Shown here one piece after another: positions 3,363 through 29,280 of a stretch of DNA of 32,000 nucleotides. How positions within the stretch are numbered: position 1 is the stretch's first letter; every line of letters begins with the position of its first letter. The stretch spans positions 750,001-782,000 of the forward strand of contig NC_003272.1 in the NCBI RefSeq assembly GCF_000009705.1. The letters run 5' to 3'. This stretch comes from Nostoc sp. PCC 7120 = FACHB-418 (GTDB taxonomy: Bacteria > Cyanobacteriota > Cyanobacteriia > Cyanobacteriales > Nostocaceae). The translations under genes and the position numbers were made by a program. The notes under the pieces were generated by a model. The model was given only the letters and a program-made list of their open reading frames with translations, ran no database searches and was not told the origin of the DNA.

Positions 3363-3869
3363 AGATTCCCGAACCTAAATTACAATTTTCTAAAAAAGCC
3401 ACAAATCTCTAGTTTAAAAACTTGTGGGTCAAACGAGCCAAAAATTAGGCTCAATTTTGCCCAAGCAACTTTTTTGCTTGTTAAACGTTTACACGATTAA
3501 TGGACATGACTAGAGTTATTTTCCCTCAAATGCGTATAGGCTTGTATATTGACTAAGTTTTTGTTGTACTTCTTGATGGAAACATTCTGGTGTTAACACC
3601 AGACTCTGGTGAACTAGTCTACAAATACCTTGGCCGTGAGGTCACGTTTTCAAGTTCTCAACGAACTGTGTACAAATTCTCTAGTGTACGGATGATGGTG
3701 ATACCCCACGAGTTTGAGTTTCAACCCAAGAGCAATCTTCTTGTTCTTTATGCCTAATCGAGGTTTATCATGCTGAGGGCAATTGTGAGCAAATATGTTT
3801 TAGGGTTGAATCACAGTAGCCAACTATTCCAGAGTTACCAGCAAGTGTCTAGGTAGGAGGATTAGGCAA

Positions 3870-5865: not shown

Positions 5866-5990
5866 GATGAAAACGAAAGATCAAGGGTTTGGAGAAGGGT
5901 ATAGGGGTATAGGGGTATAAATGTTTGAAAACCTTACACCCCTGAACCCTTACACCCGGTCTAAACAGAAAATCTGGGTGAGTAAGTCCT
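5866..5990. repeat. 125-bp palindromic MITE-like element
   Basis: Perfect 9-bp termini AGGACTTAC / GTAAGTCCT. The inner arms are GGGTATAGGGGTATAGGGGTATAA versus CCTTACACCCCTGAACCCTTACACCC. A related half-arm recurs at 10727-10759. Confidence 0.6.
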
Positions 5991-10725: not shown

Positions 10726-11009
10726 ACACCCCTACACCCTTACACCCCCATACCCTTAATTCCTGACAACGTACTCTAACAAGACTTTATTTTGTTGAAG
10801 ATTTGATGAATTATTGATCAAAAGACACAAATACTTCATGATGTTTGTTATTTTGCTAAGTGAATTAACAAAAATCTAAAGAAAATGTAAACACCCCAAG
10901 CAAAAATCTGGAATGAGTATTGTTCCTGCTGTATTGTCATATTTGGGCTAGATGGTTTAGAACCAATATCAAAAGCTACTAACAATATCTATTAAGTAAC
11001 TGGGAAAAT

Positions 11010-16472: not shown

Positions 16473-16652
16473 TTAGAGTCCAATTTCACCTACTACCGTT
16501 TCTTTATCAGGATTTCCTTGAATATACTTCAACACAATCTTTACACCCAATCCATTTTGGCGAAAGGCAATCTGATAATGGTCTGGGTTGAGGTCTTTAT
16601 TGTTGTCTTTGATAAAACTAAAAAAGTTTACCAAACTGAAGTTTGTATTCAT
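16473..16652 (-). CDS. Hypothetical 59-aa protein
   Basis: The minus-strand frame from ATG at 16652 to TAA at 16473-16475 reads MNTNFSLVNFFSFIKDNNKDLNPDHYQIAFRQNGLGVKIVLKYIQGNPDKETVVGEIGL. It looks more protein-like than the overlapping plus-strand track ORF 16470..16682. I recognise no homolog. Confidence 0.35.
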   Translation of the reverse strand: MNTNFSLVNFFSFIKDNNKDLNPDHYQIAFRQNGLGVKIVLKYIQGNPDKETVVGEIGL

Positions 16653-16824
16653 CTGTTTTCTCTCATGACATGGATAAAGTAAGTAGAAGATTATAGATAA
16701 TCTAGCTATAAATTTATAGATATAAAAAATATAACTAGGAACTAAACTCTCAACTTAACTAAATTGAGTAATGAGTTGATTTCGTTTATCTTTCTTCTGA
16801 TTATTTATAAGTGTCGCCGAAATT

Positions 16825-17045
16825 AGCTTATGCAGTTGGAATAATTGATCTGTCCTGAAAATAAATAATGTAAAAATATATACATACTTTTACGACGGTA
16901 AATAAGAGCCAATGATTTTGTTCTCCGCCCATTATGAATGCACTTAATTTATTACCGCAGAGTAAAAAGATACACACGACTATAGGCGCTCACGATTAAA
17001 ACTTGTGAGTTTACTAAGTGTATCTTTTTAGCAACTGCATAAGCT
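16825..17045. repeat. 221-bp module bounded by 14-nt perfect inverted termini, with nested inverted repeats
   Basis: AGCTTATGCAGTTG (16825-16838) faces CAACTGCATAAGCT (17032-17045). Nested inside are TAAAAAGATACAC (16963-16975) / GTGTATCTTTTTA (17019-17031) and CTCAC...GTGAG. The same 12-nt termini bound a second module at 27362-27570. Confidence 0.7.
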
Positions 17046-17104
17046 CACAATACAGGTCTCTATTTAGTTACAGAAATAATATCTTACATATCTAAGGAGA
17101 GAGA

Positions 17105-19003
17105 ATGCTTAACTCAATTTACTCCAGAGAAGTTTATGATATCTTCAATCAGGCTAAATGTAATGCTCTGAACAAAGCCACGAAAAGTGTCCAAGTTGGC
17201 GATGAGGTGAAAGAAATTCCTTCGCCTTTTCCATCACCAGCCGATTGGCGCGATCTATGGATTTACTTTATTATGACAGACCGCTTTAATAATCCATCTG
17301 CGCCACCTACAATGTCTTGGAATGCTTTTGATGGTAATGATTTTTTAGGTAAAAAAGCTTTGGGTTTTCAAGGTGGTACTTTTGAAGGTATCCGTCAACA
17401 ATTAGGATACTTAGAAAAATTAGGAGTAGGAGCGATTTGGATCACTCCTCCTTTCAAAAATTGCCAGTATGAACCTACATACCACGGCTATGGAATTCAA
17501 GATTTTTTACAAATTGATCCACGATTTGCTAGTAACAAAGATAATCCAGAAGCAGAATTACAAGCACTAATTGATGAGGCTCATGCACGCGGTATTTATG
17601 TGATTTTTGATATTGTACTTAACCATACAGGTAACGTTTTCAGTTATTTTATTGAGGGCAAAAATGTCAAATCAACTGAGACCGACAGAGATCTGCCACT
17701 ACTCCCATATGATATTAAATGGCATAATAAAACAGGCGAGCCACAGTGGATAAATGCACCAGATGATCAAGATCCTGACCTTCATCCTAATGCAGCAGTA
17801 TGGCCTAGAGAACTTTGTAAAAATGAGTATTTTCGCAGGAGAGGCACTCGAAAAGGTGATACTGGGGAAGGCGGAGATTTTACTGATTTGCGAGAGCTAT
17901 TGACTGAGAAAGAAGAAGTACGTAATATCTTAATTCGGATTCATCAATATTTAATTGCCAAGTTTGATATTGACGGATTTCGGATTGATACTTTGCGATT
18001 TATTGAGCCAGAGTTCGCCAGAATTTTTGGTAATTCCATGCATGAATTTGCTTTAAGCATTGGTAAGAAAAATTTCTTTAGCTTTGGTGAGGTATGGGCT
18101 GACGAAGACAAGACAGAGAAGAAAATTAGCCAATTTATTGGTCGTAAAGCGACGGAACCAGGTGATTTATTAGGTATTGATGCAGCACTTGATTTCCCCT
18201 TATTCTTCAAACTCCGTTATGTGTTGAAAGGATTACAACCAATAAAAGAACTAGCTGAGGTCTATGAAAAGCGTAAGGAAAGTCTGCGCGGTATTATCAG
18301 TTCTCATGGTGAAGTTAGCAAATTTCTGGTGACATTCCTTGATAATCATGATTGGAAGAGACGCTTTTACTACAGTAACCCAGCAAATCCTCAAAAGTTT
18401 GATGACCAACTAACTTTAGGGATTACCTGTTTGTTTGCCTTACAAGGGATACCCTGCATATACTACGGCACAGAACAGGGACTCAATGGTTATCTTACCG
18501 AAAATCGCGATTTTGGGGATCTTGTAGTTCGTGAAGCTTTATGGGGTAAACCAGGCGGCGGCTTTAAGCAAGACCACCCGTTCTATAAAACAATTGCAAA
18601 GTTATCAGAATACCGCAATAGCCATCCGGCACTGCGTTATGGAAGGCAGTATTTTCGTCCTATATCTGGCGATCGCATTAATTATGCCATTTCTCCCTAC
18701 CCGTCTGGTGTCCTGGCGTTCTCTCGCATCTTGAATGAGACAGAAGTGGTTGTGGTAGCAAATACGAACACAGAATTTACTCAGTCTGTTTATGTAATAG
18801 TTGATGACAATCTCCATTCTGAAAACCCTACTTTCAAGATTTTATTTAGCAATAAATCTAGGGATAACAGTATTCAACCGGAAAAAGTTGAAGAACATCA
18901 CGGTGTCAATATCACCGAAGTTAATGGTCACAAGAATTATGGGCCAGTACGAGTGATGAAAGTAACTCTCCAACCGATGGAAGTACAAATTTTAGTGAAA
19001 TAG
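17105..19003 (+). CDS. Alpha-amylase family (GH13) glycoside hydrolase
   Basis: GGAGAGAGA Shine-Dalgarno precedes the ATG. GH13 conserved regions are present: YVIFDIVLNHTG, DGFRIDTLRFI, FGEVW and FLDNHD. Confidence 0.88.
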   Translation: MLNSIYSREVYDIFNQAKCNALNKATKSVQVGDEVKEIPSPFPSPADWRDLWIYFIMTDRFNNPSAPPTMSWNAFDGNDFLGKKALGFQGGTFEGIRQQLGYLEKLGVGAIWITPPFKNCQYEPTYHGYGIQDFLQIDPRFASNKDNPEAELQALIDEAHARGIYVIFDIVLNHTGNVFSYFIEGKNVKSTETDRDLPLLPYDIKWHNKTGEPQWINAPDDQDPDLHPNAAVWPRELCKNEYFRRRGTRKGDTGEGGDFTDLRELLTEKEEVRNILIRIHQYLIAKFDIDGFRIDTLRFIEPEFARIFGNSMHEFALSIGKKNFFSFGEVWADEDKTEKKISQFIGRKATEPGDLLGIDAALDFPLFFKLRYVLKGLQPIKELAEVYEKRKESLRGIISSHGEVSKFLVTFLDNHDWKRRFYYSNPANPQKFDDQLTLGITCLFALQGIPCIYYGTEQGLNGYLTENRDFGDLVVREALWGKPGGGFKQDHPFYKTIAKLSEYRNSHPALRYGRQYFRPISGDRINYAISPYPSGVLAFSRILNETEVVVVANTNTEFTQSVYVIVDDNLHSENPTFKILFSNKSRDNSIQPEKVEEHHGVNITEVNGHKNYGPVRVMKVTLQPMEVQILVK

Positions 19004-19056: not shown

Positions 19057-21861
19057 TCATTGTTGGGCGATGGGGCGTATCCCGTCGCATAAACTTTTTT
19101 CATCAGGGTTCACATTGGGATTATTTTGCAAATAATCTCGCGCCCAATCACAACCACGCACTAGTAATTGATCTAAATCATCTAGATATAAATGCCAAAC
19201 CACGATATCATACCTGCTACCAGTGGCTAGAGTCTTACCATCAAGACTAAACCGCAAACTCCAAACTGCATCTTTATAGCCTCGCAGGGTACGCAGTTCT
19301 TGACCGTTAATGTTCCAGATTTTTACAGTATTATCACCACTGGCAGTGGCAATGAGTTTACCATCTGGGCTGAAGGTAACATTATGAACTACATTTTTAT
19401 GTCCTCGCAGAGTTCGCAATTCTTTGCCATCAAGATTCCAGATTTTTACAGTATTATCCCAACTAGCACTAGCAATCAGCTTACCATCTGGGCTGAAGGT
19501 GACGCTGTTAATACCACTTGTATGTCCCGTTAAAGTCTTCTGTAATCGACCATCAATACTCCAGATTTTCACTGTTTTGTCCCAACCAGCCGTAGCAATT
19601 AATTTACCATCTGGGCTGAACACTGCGCTATTAACTACACTACTCTGACGTGGGAGAGTTTTAAGCAATTCACCGTCTCGATTCCAGAGTTTGACAGTTT
19701 TGTCTTCACTAGCCGTAGCAATTAACTGACCATCCGGGCTGAAATTGACACTCCAAACTGTATCTTTGTGTCCTGTAAGAGTTTTCTGTAATGTACCATC
19801 TAGATTCCAGAGTTTGGCGGTTTTATCCCAACTCGTCGTAGCAATGTACTTACCATCTGGGCTAAAACTCAGCTTATTTACCCTGCCTTGATGCCCGTTG
19901 AAGGTTCGCAGTTCTTGAAGTTTATCCCCTACAATACTCCAGAGTTTGGCGGTTTTATCCCAACTAGCCGTAGCAATGTACTTACCATTTGGGCTAAATA
20001 CTAGGTCGAAGACCTCATCTTCATGACCCCGAACAATAATGCTGTTAGGACTGTTGAGTTTCCAGATTTTAGCCGTTTTGTCATTACCAGCTGTAGCGAT
20101 GGATGTGCCATCAGGACTAAACGCGACGCTATTAACTGCATCAGTGTGTCCGTAGAGGGTTTCTAGTTCTTGACCTTTGCTGTTCCAAAGTTTGACAGTT
20201 CTGTCACCACTAGCTGTAGCAATCAGTTTGCCGTCGGGACTGAATGTCACACTGTTCACCCCATTTTGATGACCTCTGAGGGTTTGCAGTTCTTTTCCGT
20301 CTAAACTCCAAAGTTTGACAGTTCTGTCACCACTGGCTGTAGCAATTTGTTTACCATCTGGGCTAAAGCTGACGCTCCAAATCATATCTTGATGTCCTCT
20401 AAAAGTTCGCAATTCCTTGCCATCAAGATTCCAGAGTTTCATGGTGTTGTCCCAACCGACAGTGGCAATTAGCTGACCGTCTGGGCTAAAGGTGATGCTG
20501 TTGACCTTATCTTTATGTCCTTCCAGGGTGTGCAGGAGTTTACCTTCTCGACTCCAGAGTTTAACTGTGTTGTCCCAACTAGCCGTAGCAAGTAGCTGAC
20601 TATCAGGACTAAAGGCGACTTCCAAAACTGCTTCTTTATGTCCGTCAAGAGTGTGGAGGCGTTTACCTTCTCGACTCCAAATTTTTGCCGTGTTGTCCCA
20701 ACTGCCGGTAGCCATCAGTGTACCATCGGGGCTGAAGGCAACGCTATTAAAACCCTCTCCTTTCTCTTCTCGCAGTACGACTAACTGTTTTTTACCGTCA
20801 AGACTCCAAATTTTGACTGTTTTATCTCTGCTGGCGGTGGCAATAAATTTACTATCAGGGCTAAAACTCACACTCTCTAGCATTCCATCATGTTCTGCTA
20901 AACGATTTTTCTCTCTGACGAAGTTGATGGACTGTTGTAGAGTCTCGGTAATTTGAGTGCGAGTGTTAGCATCAATTCCATCAGTGCCTTTGATGCGCCT
21001 ACCAGCTCTAATACTGGCAATTAACCCATCAAACTCTAGATTTGCATTAAGGAAGCTTTCGGCTGATGAGCTGATTGCTTTAGTTTCGCTCATCCGTGCC
21101 TTTTGTCCTTGCAACCAAGCAACCCCAGCCAGACCAAGGGCTAAGATTAAGCCTGTGACTAGGGATGAAATCCCGATTTTACGTATGCGCTGCTGCTGTT
21201 TGACCTCAAGTTCTCTCAGTTCCCCACTCTTATTAATGAACCTGATTTCATTTGTATTGAGTTCTTGTGCGCGTTGTAACTGCCATTCTTGGGCATCTAT
21301 CAAGGCCTTACCTCGTAATAGCACCCCTTGATCATGTCCGCTATTTTCCCATAGGCGAATTGCTAACCGTAATTGTTCGCGCCAGCGTAGAAAATCACCA
21401 TCCACAATTAGCCACTGTTCCAGTCGTCCCCAGCTTCTAATTAAGGCTTCATGGACGATTTCTACTGTTTCTTCTGCCGTGGACTCATTACGGTTGGTCA
21501 CTACTAGACGTGAAGAAGCTAAACGTGTGACTAAATCCCAGTTTTCTAGCCTGACTTCCTCACGAGTTGTCAACCGTCGGGTAGCTTCTGTGTCATCTCC
21601 TAAACGTACCAATTGGATAAATATTTGTTGCGCCCTTTGCCTATCTGCTTCGGTTAGCTGGGCATATACAGCCTCAGCATGGTTAGCCAAGGCTTCTTCT
21701 ACACCACCAATTTCTTGATAAGCTTGATGAGTTAAGAGCCTATTTTGCTGTTTTGACCATAATTGGGTAAGGGCAAACTCAAGTAAAGGTAAATGTCCTG
21801 GCTGTTGGTCTATCTCGTCGATTAATTGATTGGTTAATCCTGCTTCTAGTCCTATCTGCAT
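19057..21861 (-). CDS. C-terminal part of a frameshifted CHAT-STAND NTPase-WD40 protein: NTPase helical/winged-helix region, one TM helix, 14 WD40 repeats
   Basis: 934-aa ORF. It begins mid-domain (QIGLEAGLTNQLIDEIDQQPGHLPLLEFALTQLW). The TM helix is IGISSLVTGLILALGLAGVAWL. There are 14 repeats of the type GH.d.V.SV.FSPDGk.IATAS.DkTvKLW. The conserved tail is LLVRGCDWARDYLQNNPNV. Confidence 0.9.
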   Translation of the reverse strand: MQIGLEAGLTNQLIDEIDQQPGHLPLLEFALTQLWSKQQNRLLTHQAYQEIGGVEEALANHAEAVYAQLTEADRQRAQQIFIQLVRLGDDTEATRRLTTREEVRLENWDLVTRLASSRLVVTNRNESTAEETVEIVHEALIRSWGRLEQWLIVDGDFLRWREQLRLAIRLWENSGHDQGVLLRGKALIDAQEWQLQRAQELNTNEIRFINKSGELRELEVKQQQRIRKIGISSLVTGLILALGLAGVAWLQGQKARMSETKAISSSAESFLNANLEFDGLIASIRAGRRIKGTDGIDANTRTQITETLQQSINFVREKNRLAEHDGMLESVSFSPDSKFIATASRDKTVKIWSLDGKKQLVVLREEKGEGFNSVAFSPDGTLMATGSWDNTAKIWSREGKRLHTLDGHKEAVLEVAFSPDSQLLATASWDNTVKLWSREGKLLHTLEGHKDKVNSITFSPDGQLIATVGWDNTMKLWNLDGKELRTFRGHQDMIWSVSFSPDGKQIATASGDRTVKLWSLDGKELQTLRGHQNGVNSVTFSPDGKLIATASGDRTVKLWNSKGQELETLYGHTDAVNSVAFSPDGTSIATAGNDKTAKIWKLNSPNSIIVRGHEDEVFDLVFSPNGKYIATASWDKTAKLWSIVGDKLQELRTFNGHQGRVNKLSFSPDGKYIATTSWDKTAKLWNLDGTLQKTLTGHKDTVWSVNFSPDGQLIATASEDKTVKLWNRDGELLKTLPRQSSVVNSAVFSPDGKLIATAGWDKTVKIWSIDGRLQKTLTGHTSGINSVTFSPDGKLIASASWDNTVKIWNLDGKELRTLRGHKNVVHNVTFSPDGKLIATASGDNTVKIWNINGQELRTLRGYKDAVWSLRFSLDGKTLATGSRYDIVVWHLYLDDLDQLLVRGCDWARDYLQNNPNVNPDEKSLCDGIRPIAQQ
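19192..20892 (-). repeat. Tandem coding repeat array of 14 WD40 units, about 123 nt each
   Basis: I counted 14 FSPDG/FSPDS/FSPNG/FSLDG cores in the translation. The 41-aa periodicity is visible at nucleotide level (recurring ccatctgggctgaa / tttgacagtt strings). Confidence 0.85.
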
Positions 21862-23689
21862 TTTTTTTAGCAGGTTCTTCTATCACCCGACGCAATTCCT
21901 TCATATTCATGGGGCCAAGGTTCTGCACTGCTCCTTGCAAGGCATCACTAAAGGGACGGTAAGAAAGAGCATAGCTGTAAAAGTCAGCCCGCAGGGTTAA
22001 AACGATGGTGAAGGCGGGAGTGAAACTATAAGCATTGAGTAATAAATCTAAAAAAGGCTGACGTTGTGGTTCTGGACAAAGGGTGTAAAGTTCCTCAAAC
22101 TGATCTGCTATGAGTAGTAAACGAGTGCCAAATTTTTGCTGCACAACCTTTTCTAGGATGGTGTGTAGTAATTGATGGTTTTGTTGTAATGCGATCGCTA
22201 AATCTAATTCTAGTAAGCGAGTAGTGGTACTATCTTCTGGCAACTCTAGGATGTTTTCTAGGGAAAAAGAGGGACAACACTGTCGTAAACTCACTAATGC
22301 AGTCGCCAAAGCTTCAAAGGGATTTTTCCCTGGACGAAAAGAAATGATTTGCCATTGCACATTCGGGTCTTGTCGTAACTGGGGAGTCAACCCAGCAAAC
22401 ACTAAACTAGACTTACCACTGCCACTAGCCCCCACTACAGCCACAAACCGCTTTCTTTTCACCGCCTTGACTAAATCAGCCGTGAATTCTTCTCTGCCAA
22501 AAAATAAGTGTGCATCTTCTTCTCGGAAAGCAAATAAACCACGATATGGACAAGGGGGTATGCCGCCCAATTGCAACCAAGTTGGTGGTTCTACAGATGG
22601 GTTTTGAAAAATTACGGGCAACCAAGAAGCACAGGGAAAGTCATCTTCTAATCCTTGTAACTGTCTGCGTGCCTGTTGTACTGCTAAATATAAAGTTTGA
22701 CGCTTGATAGCGAAAGCTTCCAGAAAATTTTGGAAAAACTGCTGGGCGACACAATTTGGCACTGGTTCTCGCATGATAATCACTTGGGGAATATGCAGTT
22801 TTCCCAAAGCATTCGCCAATCCCAGTCCATCACAGGAGTTGAAAATAGCTAACTTTAAACCTCTATCAATGGCTGCGGTGAGAGCTTCCTCTAATTCTCC
22901 AATTGTCAGGCTATTGTTTGTGGGATTGTCATTGATATAAATTATGCCTGTGTCACCTTTGCTTTGACTATGACCTGCAAAAAATAAGATGTCCCAACCT
23001 AAAGAGTCCCAAAGCTGTTTGTTAAATTCTTGACGCGAGGGCTGATTTAGCTGCACAACTTCGGCAATATTCTCTAATTCTTTCAGAAAAGTGGCTTCTC
23101 TTTGCAAGTCAATACCTTGGCTATTGCCCAAAATAGCTAAAATTCTGACTTTGTTTCTGTTGCATAGGGATTGTGTCGCATCTCTTCGTTGATACTCTGT
23201 CCGGGAAAGTCCTAGTTCTGCTTGAGGATAATCTCGAAAAAAGTCCCAGCAATGCCAGGGTAGCCGCCGTAAACTGTCATCGTTGGTTTCTAGAATGACT
23301 CGAATTTCTTCATTGCGGTTAAGTTGCGATCGCAATTGTCTTTCAATTTCTAGAAACTCTACTGACTTAAGCCAAGTATTAATATTATCTCGTAGCTGTT
23401 TACATAATTCATCAAAATCGAGTAGAGACACGTTTGTTATCGCGCCTAATTCTATTTCCAGTTGGTCATCTTCCTCTAACAATGCAGAACGCATTGGTTG
23501 ACGAGTACATAAAGCTTGATAATTGGTACGCCAATGTCTATAGAGTTCTAGTAAATTTGGTGCAGCTGGTAAGCTACCAAGAAACTGCTCTGGCGCATGA
23601 TGACTTGCTGACCAAAGTTGAGTCGTCACGCTGGGAAATCCAGTATACAAATCACCATTACCCAAATTTATGACAATTGTCTTGCTCAT
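21779..23689 (-). CDS. N-terminal part of the same protein: CHAT (caspase-like) protease domain plus STAND P-loop NTPase core
   Basis: 636-aa ORF. It has a CHAT-like His/Cys dyad (ILFFAGHSQS at about aa 240; AIFNSCDGLG at about aa 286). PYRGLFAFREEDAHLFFGRE is followed by Walker A VVGASGSGKSS and Walker B LLLIADQFEE. The last 27 aa are out-of-frame junk after the A8 tract at 21861-21868. Confidence 0.9.
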   Translation of the reverse strand: MSKTIVINLGNGDLYTGFPSVTTQLWSASHHAPEQFLGSLPAAPNLLELYRHWRTNYQALCTRQPMRSALLEEDDQLEIELGAITNVSLLDFDELCKQLRDNINTWLKSVEFLEIERQLRSQLNRNEEIRVILETNDDSLRRLPWHCWDFFRDYPQAELGLSRTEYQRRDATQSLCNRNKVRILAILGNSQGIDLQREATFLKELENIAEVVQLNQPSRQEFNKQLWDSLGWDILFFAGHSQSKGDTGIIYINDNPTNNSLTIGELEEALTAAIDRGLKLAIFNSCDGLGLANALGKLHIPQVIIMREPVPNCVAQQFFQNFLEAFAIKRQTLYLAVQQARRQLQGLEDDFPCASWLPVIFQNPSVEPPTWLQLGGIPPCPYRGLFAFREEDAHLFFGREEFTADLVKAVKRKRFVAVVGASGSGKSSLVFAGLTPQLRQDPNVQWQIISFRPGKNPFEALATALVSLRQCCPSFSLENILELPEDSTTTRLLELDLAIALQQNHQLLHTILEKVVQQKFGTRLLLIADQFEELYTLCPEPQRQPFLDLLLNAYSFTPAFTIVLTLRADFYSYALSYRPFSDALQGAVQNLGPMNMKELRRVIEEPAKKNADRTRSRINQSINRRDRPTARTFTFT

Positions 23690-24302: not shown

Positions 24303-25370
24303 CTATAATTCAAAATTTTCTTTAATAGTAATATTGTCTAAGCTGACCTCAATACTAAACTGTTTTCCTATTTCTCCCTGAAAAGGATTCAGTTGAATAT
24401 AACTATCTTGACTTCTAGATATAACTTCACACAGCGATTTTCCTGCCTTTGATAGTAAAGTTAGCTTGAGATTAGGCTGTAAAAACTTTGTTTCTCCGCT
24501 TGGATGCAACTGGATTAATACACGTAATTTTTCTTCAGCCTCTTCTTTAATATTGACCAACATGACAACAGGATAGTTGCCAAGTTGCATTTCTAAGTTA
24601 ATAATTTTACCCCGCTTGATGCTCTCAGCATTATTTCTGATATTTAAAGCTAAATTAATATCTGGATTAATCAATGCAGCAATTGACTGCCATTCATCGA
24701 GAAAAATCCCCCGTAACCATTGGCTCAATTTAGTTTTATTTTGAGGCAACAATTGTATTAAATTATCTTCGTTGTTGACTGTCGTTAACACAGGTAAAGG
24801 AATGGTATGAGCATCTAAAAAACGGCAGTAAAATAAAATGTGATTTGGTTCTGGATCAAATTCTGCTAGTGGTAGTTGATAACAACCATTCCTTGGTTGT
24901 AAATTCATCTTATCTCTATAACTAACTAGTTGGTCGTAACGTAAAATACCTCGAAGAACTAATTCTGCTTGCTCTTCTAATACTTCAACTACAACATATA
25001 AATGAGCTATCGCTTCTGGCTTAATAATAGTATCTTCAGGTATATTTACTAATTCATCTAGTAGATGTTCCGTAACGATTAAACAAAATTTAAATTCACC
25101 TAATTGGATATGAGTAAAATTATCAATAATTTGATTGTTTTGTTTAATAAGTTGTTCTGGTAGGTTTTCTTTGAGCCATTTAGCAAATCCTAATGATGCC
25201 AGTACATTTAAATATGTTTGCCACTGTTTGAATTCACCAACTACCTGCTGACTAAGTTTTCTTGCTGAGTCAAAACATTCTGGTTCTAACCAAATTGATT
25301 CTGATAACAATAATCTCAATTTATTGTTTTTTTCATGGTTCTTAATCATTATTTTTATCCTTGATTTCAA
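24303..25370 (-). CDS. DUF1822-family protein (cyanobacterial, function unknown)
   Basis: 355-aa ORF. The N-terminal pattern ...ARKLSQQVVGEFKQWQTYLNVLASLGFAKWLKENL... matches my memory of DUF1822. The gene is AT-rich. An alternative ATG start at 25349 has AAGGA upstream. Confidence 0.7.
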   Translation of the reverse strand: MKSRIKIMIKNHEKNNKLRLLLSESIWLEPECFDSARKLSQQVVGEFKQWQTYLNVLASLGFAKWLKENLPEQLIKQNNQIIDNFTHIQLGEFKFCLIVTEHLLDELVNIPEDTIIKPEAIAHLYVVVEVLEEQAELVLRGILRYDQLVSYRDKMNLQPRNGCYQLPLAEFDPEPNHILFYCRFLDAHTIPLPVLTTVNNEDNLIQLLPQNKTKLSQWLRGIFLDEWQSIAALINPDINLALNIRNNAESIKRGKIINLEMQLGNYPVVMLVNIKEEAEEKLRVLIQLHPSGETKFLQPNLKLTLLSKAGKSLCEVISRSQDSYIQLNPFQGEIGKQFSIEVSLDNITIKENFEL

Positions 25371-25546: not shown

Positions 25547-26992
25547 CTAAATAGCAATTAGTTGGTTTTCCAAGTAATTCTGAAGTTTTTGAGCATATAC
25601 ACTATTAAACGAACGGTTTCTGCCGGCTCTAATTTCTTCTCCTGCTTCTATAAAAACTTCTACATCAACAAAATTTTCTATTTGTTCAGCCAAGGTTTTC
25701 AGATATTCGGGTTCAGGAGGAATTGAGGTTAAACCTTTGGTATGAGCTTTTTGTAACATAGTATCGAGTAGTTTCTGTACCGTTAATATACGTACTTTAC
25801 TCAAAAGTTCACCAGGGTTTAATATTCGTCGTGTTTGATCCCAACTTGTCATATCCAAAAGAAGTTGAACTTCCTTTAAAGACTTACAATCACAGTAATA
25901 TAGTTGTAACCCAGGAAGATATTTTTGCGCTAGCGGAGCGTAACTTTTACTGTTTTGTAACTTGGCAATTGTCTGACTAATTTCTTGGGCGATCGCCTCA
26001 GACAAAATCAATTGTAATTGTTGATGTAGAAATTCAATAATTTCTTGTTGTTCTAAATGTGATTCATCGTAAGAAACCGTGGGTAAGTCTTTTCTGGGTT
26101 TATATATGCCAGTATCATGATCTGGAACTTCTAGAGGTTCTCGATAACTCCAAATATCATATTGTCGCAGTTGACTTGCTACTTGTTTGAGTTCTCGTTT
26201 CAACTCATCTGTAGTTTTGATGATGATGTTATGTTCTTGCAAGCAAGCCAGCATTTCCTGCAACTGTGAAATCGTGGGGTCTGGACATTTTCCCACTTCC
26301 ATCTGTTTTCTTTCACGTCTATCTCGTCGGTAGACTGCATGAAATACCGTTATTAGTTGGCGCGATCGCTTGACTAAAAGTTCTAGTTGTTTGGCTCTAA
26401 CTCGGTTTAATAATGACCAATCACTATGATGTTGAAAACCAAATTCTGCTAAAAACTTTCTTAGTTCTGGATTTTGCTTAGTTTGCAAGTAAGTCCAATT
26501 ATCTAGACTCATACTTGATTGAGACCCATGCTTAAATTTGCGTAAGACTTCCACCGTAAACAATTTATAAGTTGTTGTGTGAGGAACGCCATGCTCATCT
26601 AAGACTAATTGATTTTTGCGATCGCTATCCAAAATCACTAACCTGTTGCCATCATCATCTAGCACACAACTTAATAAATCTTGATAGCTGAAAGATTTTT
26701 CACCACTGAAGAGACTATCAATTTTTTGACAGGCTTTCAGAATCGGGTAGGAAACATAGCACCGTAGACACAAACCAGCAAGGCCACGATTGAGCAAATC
26801 CTTTTCAGCCAGATGATTGGCATAAAAATTACCTAGCAGGGTAGATTGGATGTCATCATTTTGGAAATCATGAACTTGTTGCTGAAAAAAATCCCGTGCT
26901 TGAGACAGATCAGACTGTTTGTATCCTACTTGTTGATTAGCAAGATTAATACGCCAAATTGTCCAGTACCTTGATATTGATGCAGCATTCAT
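25547..26992 (-). CDS. Sigma-70-like / HetZ-like putative DNA-binding regulator
   Basis: 481-aa ORF. The C-terminal LPGLQLYYCDCKSLKEVQLLLDMTSWDQTRRILNPGELLSKVRIL looks like a sigma region-4 helix-turn-helix. The N-terminal GLAGLCLRCYVSYPILKACQKI...FSYQDLLSCVLDD resembles the atypical sigma-like proteins I recall next to DUF1822 genes. The CDS is solid; the function is inferred. Confidence 0.6.
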   Translation of the reverse strand: MNAASISRYWTIWRINLANQQVGYKQSDLSQARDFFQQQVHDFQNDDIQSTLLGNFYANHLAEKDLLNRGLAGLCLRCYVSYPILKACQKIDSLFSGEKSFSYQDLLSCVLDDDGNRLVILDSDRKNQLVLDEHGVPHTTTYKLFTVEVLRKFKHGSQSSMSLDNWTYLQTKQNPELRKFLAEFGFQHHSDWSLLNRVRAKQLELLVKRSRQLITVFHAVYRRDRRERKQMEVGKCPDPTISQLQEMLACLQEHNIIIKTTDELKRELKQVASQLRQYDIWSYREPLEVPDHDTGIYKPRKDLPTVSYDESHLEQQEIIEFLHQQLQLILSEAIAQEISQTIAKLQNSKSYAPLAQKYLPGLQLYYCDCKSLKEVQLLLDMTSWDQTRRILNPGELLSKVRILTVQKLLDTMLQKAHTKGLTSIPPEPEYLKTLAEQIENFVDVEVFIEAGEEIRAGRNRSFNSVYAQKLQNYLENQLIAI

Positions 26993-27361
26993 ATTTATTT
27001 ACTGCTTTGCCTCACATTAGCTGAGATGTTAAGTCACATACTTGCATTAAATAACTAAATGTCAGCATTTTGAACATATGCAGCTAAATCGCAGTTATTT
27101 GGCTAGTTATTTTTGTTACGGAGGGTTTATTCGGCGGATTTATTGCTGCTGGGTTGAGCTAGATCGGGTGCGCCAGCTATATCTATTCCTGCTAATCCCA
27201 TTCCCGCCGACCATTTCACGGGGTCAGCATCTTTAGGTAAAAAGAGAACCGCGATCCCAATCGCTCCACCAATAGCGGCTAAAAGCTTGGATCAAATTAG
27301 CTTGCATAGTTTTTGACAATATGAATTTTTGGCTCAGTCATAAATACAAACAAGATGTTTC

Positions 27362-27570
27362 AGCTTATGCAGTGTCATATAACGTTTCTCATTTTAGTCA
27401 GGTACATCTGGTTGATGTCAGAGGTTAGAGATTAGTAATGAGTCAAGGTAACTTTGCAGCTTTAATAGCATTCATCACTCTAGCTGCCACTTTCTTTTCG
27501 CTTGCAGAGTATATAGCACACAACTGAGAATCGCTATAAAACAACCTCTCAGAAAAATACTGCATAAGCT
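27362..27570. repeat. 209-bp module bounded by the same inverted termini as 16825-17045
   Basis: CAGCTTATGCAGT (27361-27373) faces ACTGCATAAGCTG (27559-27571). The 12-nt core AGCTTATGCAGT is identical to the termini of module A. The module encloses a 29-codon hydrophobic ORF (27438-27527). Confidence 0.65.
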
Positions 27571-27619
27571 GATTTTGATAACACCTATGAAATCAGTGAA
27601 AAGTTAATCAACTGATACC

Positions 27620-28216
27620 ATGCAATCCATTAACATTACAAGACTTTCTGTCCTCAAGCCAGAGTATGACAACCTGTGGAATAGCTGTCAGATTAGACCT
27701 GAGTGGCTAGAACGTACTAAAAAAGTTGTCTTGAACATTCAAGCGAAACGCGATCGCTATGAAAGCGTAGGCACACAAACTAACATTCCTTGGTATTTTA
27801 TCGGCTGTATCCATAACATGGAAGCATCTTTAAACTTTAACAGTCATCTTCATAATGGTGATTCGCTTAAAGCTAGGACTCATCGTGTTCCAAAAGATAG
27901 GCCATTAAATCCCCCTAAAAATGGTTGGGATATTGGCTATTCCTGGGAAGAAAGTGCAGCAGATGCACTGATTATGAAAGATTTCCATAAAGCTCAAGAT
28001 TGGAGTATTCCTGCTCAGTTATGGCGGCTCGAACTTTACAATGGTTTTGGTTATAGGCTGCATCATCCAGATGTGCTAACGCCTTATCTTTGGAGTGGTA
28101 CGCATCACTACACCAAAGGTAAATATGTTGCCGATAATAAGTGGAGTTCTGATGCTATTTCTGAGCAAGTGGGAGCAGCCGCTATCTTAAAACTATTGTT
28201 ACCTGAAATTAAATAA
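27620..28216 (+). CDS. Putative lysozyme-like / peptidoglycan-active protein, no signal peptide
   Basis: 198-aa ORF. IPWYFIGCIHNMEASLNFNSHLHNGDSLKARTHRVPKDRP...GYSWEESAADAL...LELYNGFGYR resembles what I recall of the COG5526 'lysozyme family protein' group, with a candidate catalytic Glu in NMEAS. This is recalled from memory and not verified. Confidence 0.45.
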   Translation: MQSINITRLSVLKPEYDNLWNSCQIRPEWLERTKKVVLNIQAKRDRYESVGTQTNIPWYFIGCIHNMEASLNFNSHLHNGDSLKARTHRVPKDRPLNPPKNGWDIGYSWEESAADALIMKDFHKAQDWSIPAQLWRLELYNGFGYRLHHPDVLTPYLWSGTHHYTKGKYVADNKWSSDAISEQVGAAAILKLLLPEIK

Positions 28217-28248
28217 CTATCCTATAGCTTTAGTTTAAATCTTTAAAG

Positions 28249-28279
28249 ATACCAGGACTTTTTGTCCTGGTATTTTTTG
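28249..28279 (+). terminator. Rho-independent terminator
   Basis: Stem ATACCAGGAC (28249-28258), loop TTTTT, stem GTCCTGGTAT (28264-28273), then a T-run. Confidence 0.8.
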
Positions 28280-28392
28280 ATTAACTAGTTACAAGTGCAT
28301 AAGTCATTTAACAAGACAACTATTAAAAAATAACAGCCATTACAAAATATTGTTTGGCGATATCAAGGAAATTCAACTAGAGGATTACATCC

Positions 28393-29280
28393 ATGCAATT
28401 AGCAGAAATAATAGGTACACAAGAAAGTATTAGTTTAGAGAATTTAGAAAATAACTCTGGACTAGCAAAAGAAGTGCAAAAACAATTAATTGACTTAGGT
28501 TTATTAGATCCACCTGCTGATGGTAAATTTGGACGTTTTTCTACTCAGGCACTTAAGGATTTCCAATCACTCATGAAAATAGAAGAGGCGGTTCTAGGTA
28601 AATCAACTATCCAAGCTTTAATGGAAGTTAAAGAAGTTATTCCTTTTCAGTTGAGTAATAATTTAGCTAGCAGAATTATTAAGTATATGCAAAGTAAAGA
28701 TTACTTTGTTGCCAGAGGTAAACAGAGATACAACATTGTGTATATTGAAGGTGCTAACGCTGATGGTGTACCCAATGCTGATAAATTCAATGAATGGAAC
28801 GATCGCCGGATTGTGATTGAAATCGCTACGGGAACTCCGCAAATTGTAGGTAACTGGCTAGCTACCACAGAACCAGGATATTATTACACAGTCGTCGAGA
28901 TCAAGAATCCCCAAGGTGCAGCGAGAATTGCGTTTGGGCAATATCAATCTTGGCAAGTAGGAACACATGGGAACTCTGATCCGCATGAAGCACTGGTTCA
29001 AACTGGTGTAGTTAAAGTACATCGCGATCGCAATAAAGATGGATTTCGGACTGGAGATCCTGAAGATACTGGTCGTTTCGGAATTAATCAACATTGGGGT
29101 TATGACAATAAATTCGTTGATAAAGCCAGCGCTGGTTGTTTGGTAGGACAATCTCGTCAGGAACATAAAGAATTTATGCAGACCATTAAACAAGACCGTC
29201 GCTACCAGTTGAATAACAAATATACTTTCATGTCAACCATTATTCCTGGTGATGATTTAGCCAAAACTGTCCCTGCTTGA
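28393..29280 (+). CDS. Peptidoglycan-binding (PG_binding_1-like) domain protein with a C-terminal putative His/Cys cell-wall hydrolase or L,D-transpeptidase-like domain, no signal peptide
   Basis: The N-terminus (VQKQLIDLGLLDPPADGKFGRFSTQALKDFQ) is the PGRP/PG_binding_1 motif. The C-terminus (NIVYIEGAN...TTEPG...HRDRNKDG...GINQHWGYDNKFVDKASAGCLVG) carries an H...S-x-G-C motif reminiscent of the YkuD-type catalytic site. Confidence 0.6.
   Translation: MQLAEIIGTQESISLENLENNSGLAKEVQKQLIDLGLLDPPADGKFGRFSTQALKDFQSLMKIEEAVLGKSTIQALMEVKEVIPFQLSNNLASRIIKYMQSKDYFVARGKQRYNIVYIEGANADGVPNADKFNEWNDRRIVIEIATGTPQIVGNWLATTEPGYYYTVVEIKNPQGAARIAFGQYQSWQVGTHGNSDPHEALVQTGVVKVHRDRNKDGFRTGDPEDTGRFGINQHWGYDNKFVDKASAGCLVGQSRQEHKEFMQTIKQDRRYQLNNKYTFMSTIIPGDDLAKTVPA

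Follow-up and report, generated by a model that had tools for sequence, protein, structure and literature searches.

What do two inverted pairs of one 12-mer, each enclosing about 200 bp just upstream of a gene, do in the genome of Nostoc sp. PCC 7120? In the window analysed here (the whole stretch of 32,000 nucleotides), AGCTTATGCAGT occurs exactly four times, at 16825(+), 17034(-), 27362(+) and 27559(-), with no fifth copy, and every coordinate of the two inverted pairs in the original prediction holds. The perfect inverted repeat measures 14 nt at the ends of module A (16825-16838 and 17032-17045) and 13 nt at those of module B (27361-27373 and 27559-27571). From the end of module A it is 59 nt to the start codon of an amylase gene (17105), and from the end of module B 48 nt to that of a lysozyme-family gene (27620), where 60 and about 50 nt had been claimed. 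With up to two mismatches allowed, the window contains nine matches to the 12-mer against 3.4 expected, and none of 100 shuffled sequences reached nine; the pairs are beyond chance, as had been proposed. We report that the modules themselves are not units: the unit is a 33-nt box that spans each module boundary and continues on its outer side.

A repeat finder joined the ends of the two modules to each other. Outside the 12-mers the similarity continues for about 21 nt, so that all four ends read T..ATA-N13-T-N-AGCTTATGCAGT or, in the outward direction, ACTGCATAAGCT-N-A-N13-TAT..A. At three of the four ends a start codon follows 28-38 nt past the TAT box (amylase at 17105, a small gene at 27307 and lysozyme at 27620). 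Because all four ends are alike outside the 12-mers and have start codons ahead of them, the conserved unit straddles the module boundary and points away from the module. Each box starts at a 12-mer, spans about 33 nt as ACTGCATAAGYT-N15-TATnnW and is aimed at a gene. Its consensus is A(C/G)(T/A)GCATAAG(C/T)T - CAAAAnnCTGRCATC - TATnnW, and the distance from GCATAAG to TAT is invariant at 17 nt in all boxes, including those at loci that were found through a protein and not through the motif. We consider it highly probable that these are outward-facing cis-regulatory boxes, promoters or operators, and that the modules are mere spacers between them.

We built a position weight matrix from 16 boxes outside the lineage of the window, in which about 27 of the 33 positions are informative, and scored the window at 63,916 positions. 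Six boxes were identified, facing a 59-aa open reading frame (ORF), the amylase gene, a small membrane-protein pseudogene, a 481-aa gene, the lysozyme-family gene and a gene for a peptidoglycan (PG)-binding protein. Two of them, the 481-proximal box and the sixth box, come in addition to the four ends described originally, and both are unpaired. The boxes, the two spacers and a hairpin beside the sixth box are as follows.

16804-16836, minus strand: box A-left, ACTGCATAAGCT-AATTTCGGCGACACT-TATAAA, aimed at the 59-aa ORF; third-best matrix match in the window.
16837-17033: spacer A, the interior of module A, between the divergent A-left and A-right.
17034-17066, plus strand: box A-right, ACTGCATAAGCT-CACAATACAGGTCTC-TATTTA; best matrix match, with the amylase ATG 38 nt past the TAT box.
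27052-27084, minus strand: 481-proximal box, GCTGCATATGTT-CAAAATGCTGACATT-TAGTTA, 92 nt before the ATG at 26992, a position typical of the family.
27341-27373, minus strand: box B-left, ACTGCATAAGCT-GAAACATCTTGTTTG-TATTTA, with the ATG of the small membrane protein (27307) 33 nt past the TAT box.
27374-27558: spacer B, the interior of module B, between the divergent B-left and B-right; it holds a non-conserved 29-codon ORF.
27559-27591, plus strand: box B-right, ACTGCATAAGCT-GATTTTGATAACACC-TATGAA, with the lysozyme-family ATG (27620) 28 nt past the TAT box.
28245-28277, plus strand: terminator-like hairpin ending the lysozyme gene, with A-tract, hairpin and T-tract (-22 kcal/mol, z = -6.7).
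28294-28326, plus strand: sixth box, unpaired, AGTGCATAAGTC-ATTTAACAAGACAAC-TATTAA; sixth matrix match, 66 nt before the PG_binding_1 ATG (28393).

The top five matrix matches in the window were, in order, A-right, 481-proximal, A-left, B-left and B-right. When the 12-mer was excluded and positions 13-33 alone were scored, the 481-proximal box ranked first and A-right third of the 63,916 positions. The 481-proximal box has three changes in its 12-mer, and its TAT box reads TAG. The exact string GCATAAG-N17-TAT occurs five times in the window; all five copies are intergenic and directed at a gene, with a start codon 28-152 nt past the TAT box. Across the six boxes the distances from the TAT box to the ATG are 28, 33, 38, 59, 66 and 152 nt, and in other loci the 12-mer lies 59-112 nt from the ORF.

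The genes that the boxes face, together with the operon headed by the 481-aa gene, are listed below.

16473-16652, minus strand: 59-aa ORF downstream of A-left, 81% identical (48/59) to its orthologue in the related locus L113.
17105-19003, plus strand: alpha-amylase-family gene downstream of A-right; it lies beside the operon in L112 and L113.
19057-23689, minus strand: third operon gene, encoding a CHAT (caspase-like)-nSTAND-WD40 protein, split into two ORFs in the window.
24303-25370, minus strand: second operon gene, encoding a DUF1822 (TPR-like) protein (Pfam PF08852, E = 5e-85).
25547-26992, minus strand: first operon gene, encoding the 481-aa protein, putatively a divergent sigma-like factor; its region-4-like helix-turn-helix would lie at about residues 350-395.
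27127-27307, minus strand: small membrane-protein gene, frameshifted in the window and intact (72-78 aa) in relatives.
27620-28216, plus strand: lysozyme-family gene downstream of B-right.
28393-29280, plus strand: PG_binding_1 protein gene downstream of the sixth box.

Since the 59-aa ORF is 81% identical in L113, we regard it as a real gene. Across cyanobacteria, homologues of the 481-aa protein always have DUF1822 directly after them, and usually then a CHAT-nSTAND-WD40 protein. Twenty distinct loci, from taxa that include Nostocales, Pleurocapsa PCC 7319 and Microseira, were compared; in 19 of them the box stands upstream of the homologue, and its usual distance from the ATG is 63-95 nt; it lies at -63 to -95 in L010, L012, L015, L036, L038, L039, L040, L099, L108, L109, L111 and L113. 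It is found farther upstream in L014 (-300) and in Microseira wollei L110 (-703, an exact copy), and no box precedes the 481-aa homologue of N. favosum (L112), where a transposase or insertion-sequence fragment abuts the gene. Six of the homologue loci were picked through the protein and without use of the motif (NIES-4103, Pleurocapsa PCC 7319, Microseira wollei, Nostoc FACHB-110, N. favosum and another Nostoc), and in four of these the box is 76-83 nt before the ATG with its internal spacing unchanged. In the protein-chosen loci L010, L012, L108, L109, L111 and L113, taken together with the window, the distance is 76-92 nt.

Metagenomes were scanned with a pattern of 17 specified bases (the 12-mer, an A at +2 and TAT..A at a fixed distance). 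This gave 93 loci, mostly random single matches as expected for that number of specified bases. On at least 13 cyanobacterial contigs the box was located upstream of 481-aa homologues with 48-57% identity over the N-terminal 150 aa; the homologue ORFs downstream of these boxes start MNASSRYW, and this cyanobacterial subset shares the longer block ACTGCATAAGCT-CAAAAnnCTGRCATC-TATnnW. In cyanobacteria, the 481-aa/DUF1822/CHAT-STAND-WD40 operon has this box as its upstream signature. Boxes also occur before other genes. In L059 (1566-1903), ACTGCATAAGCT-GATGAATGCGAACTC-TATATA stands before two tandem paralogous genes of 83-84 aa (MSTQEQHSYHNACEF), and no 481-aa homologue was seen in the 14.7 kb of contig examined. 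In Microseira wollei (L110, 5757-6399), an extra box, ATTGCATAAGTT-...-TATTAA, lies 73 nt before a gene for an AraC-type regulator, right after DUF1822, which suggests that membership of the regulon differs between lineages.

The individual boxes of the window have orthologues as well. In N. parmelioides (L008), the segment from box A-right to the ATG (17012-17111) is 100% identical, and A-right orthologues are present in L112 and L113. L113, in which the amylase is 76% and the 481-aa protein 68% identical, has both module A boxes around a spacer of about 220 nt, with A-right directed at the amylase and A-left at the 59-aa ORF, which follows 214 nt after the A-left orthologue at 19852(+). In the metagenomic relative L009 and in L010, both outward blocks of module B are 90-97% conserved, and B-right there first faces a 94/108-aa paralogue of the small membrane protein. 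About 50 nt at B-left are conserved in L009, L010, L012 and L014; in L012 (Nostoc sp. NIES-3756) and L014 this box is unpaired, only the module B copy on the side of the 481-aa gene having survived. The sixth box has an orthologue in L010, at 2294(-). Spacer A shows moderate conservation, about 65-70% to L113, in the half that adjoins A-right. A comparison of 16955-17033 with L113 and L112 revealed conserved islands in that half (CAGAGTAAnAAGnTACACACnACTATAGGCG), and a small hairpin occupies the same place in both sequences, formed by CTCAC/GTGAG in the window and by CAGCAA/TTGCTG in L113; this hairpin is a possible further site of regulation. The nested inverted repeats reported within module A do exist.

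How much does the pairing matter? Inverted partners are general yet optional. A complete inverted partner faces a divergent gene in L108, L111, L113, L036 and L099, in each case paired with the box of the 481-aa gene; L015, L049, L040 and L109 have merely a degenerate inverted 12-mer 9-17 nt away, and L038, L039, L012 and L014 have no inverted partner. The partner box of L108 is 83 nt before a DUF4159 gene, and those of L113 precede a PG_binding/CHAP operon and the amylase/59-aa pair. Spacers between partners across relatives measure 9, 17, 17, 17, 19, ~55, 72, 185, 197, ~220, ~235 and ~490 nt, and that of module B alone is 185 nt in the window, ~490 nt in L009 and 72 nt in L010. As spacers are resized and single copies are kept in L012 and L014, the outward block is needed where pairing and spacing are dispensable. 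That the two window spacers are close in length (197 and 185 nt) is coincidental for B, and spacer A is moderately conserved. We discarded the 29-codon ORF in spacer B (27438-27527) as a toxin or membrane peptide: its ATG and frame are lost in L009, and the segment is reduced to 72 nt in L010. The suggestion of paired operators closing a loop of about 200 bp came closest in its first half, as the boxes may be sites for one DNA-binding protein; a looping pair does not fit boxes that are independent and face outward.

These comparisons bear on mobile elements. The PCC 7120 genome carries miniature inverted-repeat transposable elements (MITEs), and Nezha, a MITE of Anabaena and Nostoc, has a similar size range and similar terminal inverted repeats, a likeness of general description rather than of aligned sequence. 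The modules could on this account be MITE-like copies that kept their terminal inverted repeats while their interiors drifted, and terminal repeats of 12-14 nt (33 nt when imperfect matches are included) with sizes of 210-260 bp would suit it. The repeats are indeed present, but their best-conserved part is the inner 12 nt and the similarity extends outward. Aligned both ways round, the interiors of the two modules were not significantly alike (global z = 0.5 and 1.1; local z = 1.3 and -0.6), and inspection of both modules found no target-site duplication or flanking direct repeat at the boundaries of the 12-mers or of the 33-nt boxes; the original prediction was right on both counts. A BLAST search with both modules against 72,556 plasmids found nothing. 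When 185,579 species genomes were scanned for two 12-mers separated by 175-205 nt, only the module A orthologue of N. parmelioides matched; the window's own genome, masked or absent there, did not match either, so this genome search, which the prediction had called for, says little of other copies in PCC 7120. Unlike dispersed MITE copies with a shared interior, the sites are orthologous and ancient, with flanking proteins 68-76% identical between species, and no empty site was seen: the boxes are kept in N. parmelioides, L009, L010, L112 and L113, where spacer length alone changes. That the modules are not ordinary MITEs therefore stands, on their unrelated interiors, the missing duplication and the lack of similar plasmid copies, and we find drifting MITE copies barely credible. 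The 10.3 kb between the modules was also considered as a composite transposon and rejected, since the same boxes precede the same genes in the differently arranged L010, L012 and L108. Gene order does vary: in L010 a transketolase gene follows DUF1822, and the CHAT-STAND-WD40 gene is found next to PG_binding instead. Close relatives thus differ by rearrangement at this locus, and the boxes have remained with their genes.

The same data speak to a recombination or excision site pair, another of the original suggestions. The inverted 12-mers would then be targets of one recombinase, and the modules invertons or excision cassettes. Segments of about 200 bp enclosed by inverted repeats immediately before genes, and the sharing of one repeat sequence by two loci, resemble master-invertase systems, and invertons such as fimS and the Mpi-dependent promoters of Bacteroides likewise have short inverted repeats around a few hundred bp upstream of genes at several loci; the interior of module B has, moreover, been replaced or resized between close relatives. 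Against this, no recombinase is encoded among the ORFs of the window, unpaired boxes are conserved, and the conservation lies outside the repeats, at fixed distances from start codons. The interior has the same orientation in seven near-identical assemblies (L001-L007), in N. parmelioides (L008) and in L113, although assemblies show the majority state only. Spacers of 9-19 nt are too short to hold an invertible promoter. The repeats and their position agree with an inverton; sigma-70 scans, at background level, gave no convincing inward promoter. We consider recombination sites very improbable, and this part of the original prediction is not supported.

Long-range stems closing structured RNA leaders or small RNAs, another of the early suggestions, fare no better. 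RNA folding gave a divided answer: module A folds better than its shuffles (z = -3.4), but module B does not do so significantly (z = -1.9, with 10 of 200 shuffles at least as good). The RNAalifold covariation term was positive and hence penalising (+4.24, for three sequences), and L113 has lost many of the pairs. The nested stems are disrupted in both N. parmelioides and L113, and the closing stem is invariant and hence uninformative. No Rfam family matched at the gathering score or at E<=1. Loops would have to range from 9 to 490 nt, and unpaired copies are conserved; such stems seem to us scarcely tenable. An element in the 5' leader deserves somewhat more attention. Transcripts would start within the spacers and run outward, and ACUGCAUAAGCU with its flank would act in RNA as a protein or small-RNA site or as a processing site. 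The orthologues of B-left, conserved from the 12-mer to near the start codon, would agree with this. But the sixth box begins about 16 nt past a strong terminator, the pairs 9-19 nt apart have no room for two promoters, and there is neither an Rfam match nor covariation. We think an RNA-level box improbable. The hairpin that ends the lysozyme gene (28245-28277) went unreported by a simple terminator scan. Because it lies so close ahead of the sixth box, there is no room for a separate upstream promoter; together with the 9-19-nt spacers elsewhere, this argues that the box itself sets up transcription.

How might it do so? We put the probability at roughly 60% for the explanation as a whole, in which the boxes are the promoter-like elements of a local regulon and may be read by the operon's own sigma-like protein. 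Each 12-mer would form the upstream half, at the -35 position, of a promoter-like box of about 33 nt reading away from the module. Reading TATnnW as a -10 element puts GCATAAG at -36 to -30, which is the -35 position with a 17-nt spacer, and CTGRCATC would fill -20 to -13. A-left with A-right and B-left with B-right would be back-to-back divergent promoters, and the two further boxes single ones. Together they would drive six units: the 59-aa ORF; the amylase; the small membrane protein, from which transcription may continue into the operon; the 481-aa/DUF1822/CHAT operon; the lysozyme-family gene; and the PG-binding protein. Transcription would begin about 7 nt past TATnnW, with predicted starts at ~16796(-) (16795-16798), 17073(+), 27044(-), 27333(-), 27598(+) and 28333(+), so that the 59-aa ORF would have a 5' untranslated region of ~145 nt and each of the other five units one of about 20-60 nt. 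GCATAAG would be read by the region-4-like helix-turn-helix of the 481-aa protein, which would activate its own operon as extracytoplasmic function (ECF) sigma factors do, and the caspase and DUF1822 partners would control its activity. An alternative arrangement with CTGACA as the -35 element and a -10 element downstream was rejected, as no consistent hexamer was found across loci.

That the 481-aa protein is the reader falls a little short of even odds in our estimate. In a published domain analysis, Kaur, Iyer, Burroughs and Aravind (2021, PMC8195603) describe caspase (EACC2) proteins with variable STAND and other C-termini and neighbourhoods of ECF sigma factor, DUF1822 and EACC2-caspase, and the neighbour of DUF1822 is there called an ECF sigma factor. 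Our own comparisons are weak and point the same way as the literature. Among 24 members of the family, the most recurrent Pfam families were Sigma70_r4_2 and Sigma70_r4, both below threshold; in several members the matches lie at residues 357-377, the best with E = 0.0023 and 18 bits against a cutoff of 25.7. A HMMER profile search of the family against PDB sequences gave nothing significant. We infer from these signals that the protein is sigma-like. The small membrane-protein gene (GLAGTAIAAAAGLAQP) sits between B-left and the 481-aa gene, and is found in L009 at 775-993 and in L010 at 3555-3791; its product is a possible anti-sigma-like partner. An inverted paralogue of 94/108 aa lies between B-right and the lysozyme gene (L009 1679-1963, L010 2983-3309) and has been lost from the window.

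Several results weigh against the promoter reading or against its proposed reader. Pfam and NCBIfam returned nothing above threshold for the 481-aa protein, hhalign of its family against RpoE gave a probability of 1%, and Foldseek found nothing significant with either the full AlphaFold model or a C-terminal model. GCATAAG is unlike TTGACA and unlike the AAC/CGT of classical ECF promoters, and the -10-like hexamer often ends in A and not T. The flanks of A-left, B-left and B-right fit the consensus moderately, ranking 96, 290 and 685 of 63,916 when the 12-mer is left out. The apparently perfect conservation of the 12-mer is partly a matter of ascertainment, because the metagenome instances were required to match it exactly, and the boxes at protein-chosen loci carry 1-3 changes in it. 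A supplement related to differential RNA sequencing work listed no positions near the boxes.

The same box could have another reader, a serious variant of the main explanation that we nonetheless judge unlikely. The 12-mer, CTGRCATC or both would serve as operator for a dedicated transcription factor, either activating or repressing, and the promoter would be read through TATnnW by a housekeeping or group-2 sigma factor; the 481-aa protein would be that transcription factor or not be involved. The box is longer and, with about 27 of 33 positions informative, more uniformly conserved than -35 and -10 elements alone would be, the 481-aa protein gives a sigma signal below threshold, the inverted pairs with a 17-nt spacer in L015, L049 and L109 could suit a dimer, and the box of L108 has a perfect TATAAT. 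However, partner spacings from 9 to ~490 nt and conserved single boxes misfit a dimer on an inverted repeat, GCATAAG stands exactly at the -35 place with no TTGACA-like hexamer present, and the published domain analysis names the DUF1822 neighbour an ECF sigma factor (PMC8195603).

Some features of the window lie apart from this question. Relative to four near-identical assemblies, an extra T near 21861 turns the 1543-aa CHAT-nSTAND-WD40 gene into overlapping ORFs of 934 and 636 aa and is either a real strain frameshift or a sequencing error; L004 has a different 1-nt indel, at 19801. The amylase gene is a mosaic when compared with N. parmelioides (L008): the upstream region and first 500 nt are 94-100% identical, 17612-17800 is 59% identical and gapped, and the rest is 80-95% identical, which suggests recombination within the gene. 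Short tandem repeats of a heptamer type (ACACCCC / TTACACCC), of the STRR-like kind (short tandemly repeated repetitive sequences) that is typical of cyanobacteria, lie between genes at 5936-5957 and 10726-10763.

The finding would be a factor-specific promoter with a compact regulon, familiar in kind and not a new type of element. Autoregulated promoters of ECF-type sigma factors likewise have a bipartite motif of fixed spacing before the sigma factor's own operon, repeated at a few neighbouring targets. They differ from the present case in sequence, since the motif here is GCATAAG-N17-TATnnW with CTGRCATC in the spacer and neither the -35 AAC nor the -10 CGT of the classical ECF consensus was found at the expected positions in the 16-box consensus. 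The putative sigma factor here has 470-500 aa, escapes the Pfam sigma models and has only DUF1822 or the small membrane protein as anti-sigma candidates. Protease-controlled sigma factors are known from defence systems, namely CalpL/CalpT/CalpS, PCc-sigma with SAVED-CHAT/PCaspase, and CASP-sigma (bioRxiv 10.1101/2023.06.23.546230). As here, a CHAT or caspase-type protease lies beside a sigma-like factor, and proteolysis is proposed to release transcriptional activity; in contrast to them, there is no CRISPR or cyclic-oligoadenylate sensor here, and the sensor would be the STAND-WD40 part. Closest is the neighbourhood of EACC2-caspase, ECF sigma and DUF1822 itself, with its CHAT/caspase protein of variable STAND/WD40 C-terminus; the part of that work cited here covers protein domains and describes no cis element or target genes (PMC8195603). 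The box motif appears to be undescribed: our literature searches yielded no description of it, searches with sequence strings gave unrelated primer matches, and the portions of the DUF1822 literature drawn on do not treat cis elements.

Caspase/CHAT-STAND conflict systems are abundant in multicellular bacteria; for the related CRISPR-linked protease-sigma cascades, the target genes were stated as still to be found (bioRxiv 10.1101/2023.06.23.546230). The box supplies a candidate promoter and candidate target genes, which those studies left open, and, in the tractable model PCC 7120, a gene list that has, besides the operon, an amylase, two small proteins and two proteins directed at the cell wall. 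We propose, tentatively and with more doubt than belief, that filamentous cyanobacteria use a caspase-gated sigma-like factor and its dedicated promoter as an execution programme, run at the level of transcription, for regulated cell lysis or for defence. The STAND-WD40 sensor would activate the CHAT protease, which would release the 481-aa factor from either DUF1822 or the small membrane protein, and the freed factor would turn on its own operon, peptidoglycan hydrolases (the lysozyme-family and PG-binding proteins, and CHAP in L113) and the amylase. For genome scanning there is a caution, in that inverted repeats bounding a module can be two divergent copies of one promoter. As the box is near-invariant across cyanobacterial orders, what the caspase-linked system, a system of the cell-death type, switches on becomes testable; if the execution-programme reading is true, the box would be a cis code for lysis or defence that is conserved across those orders.

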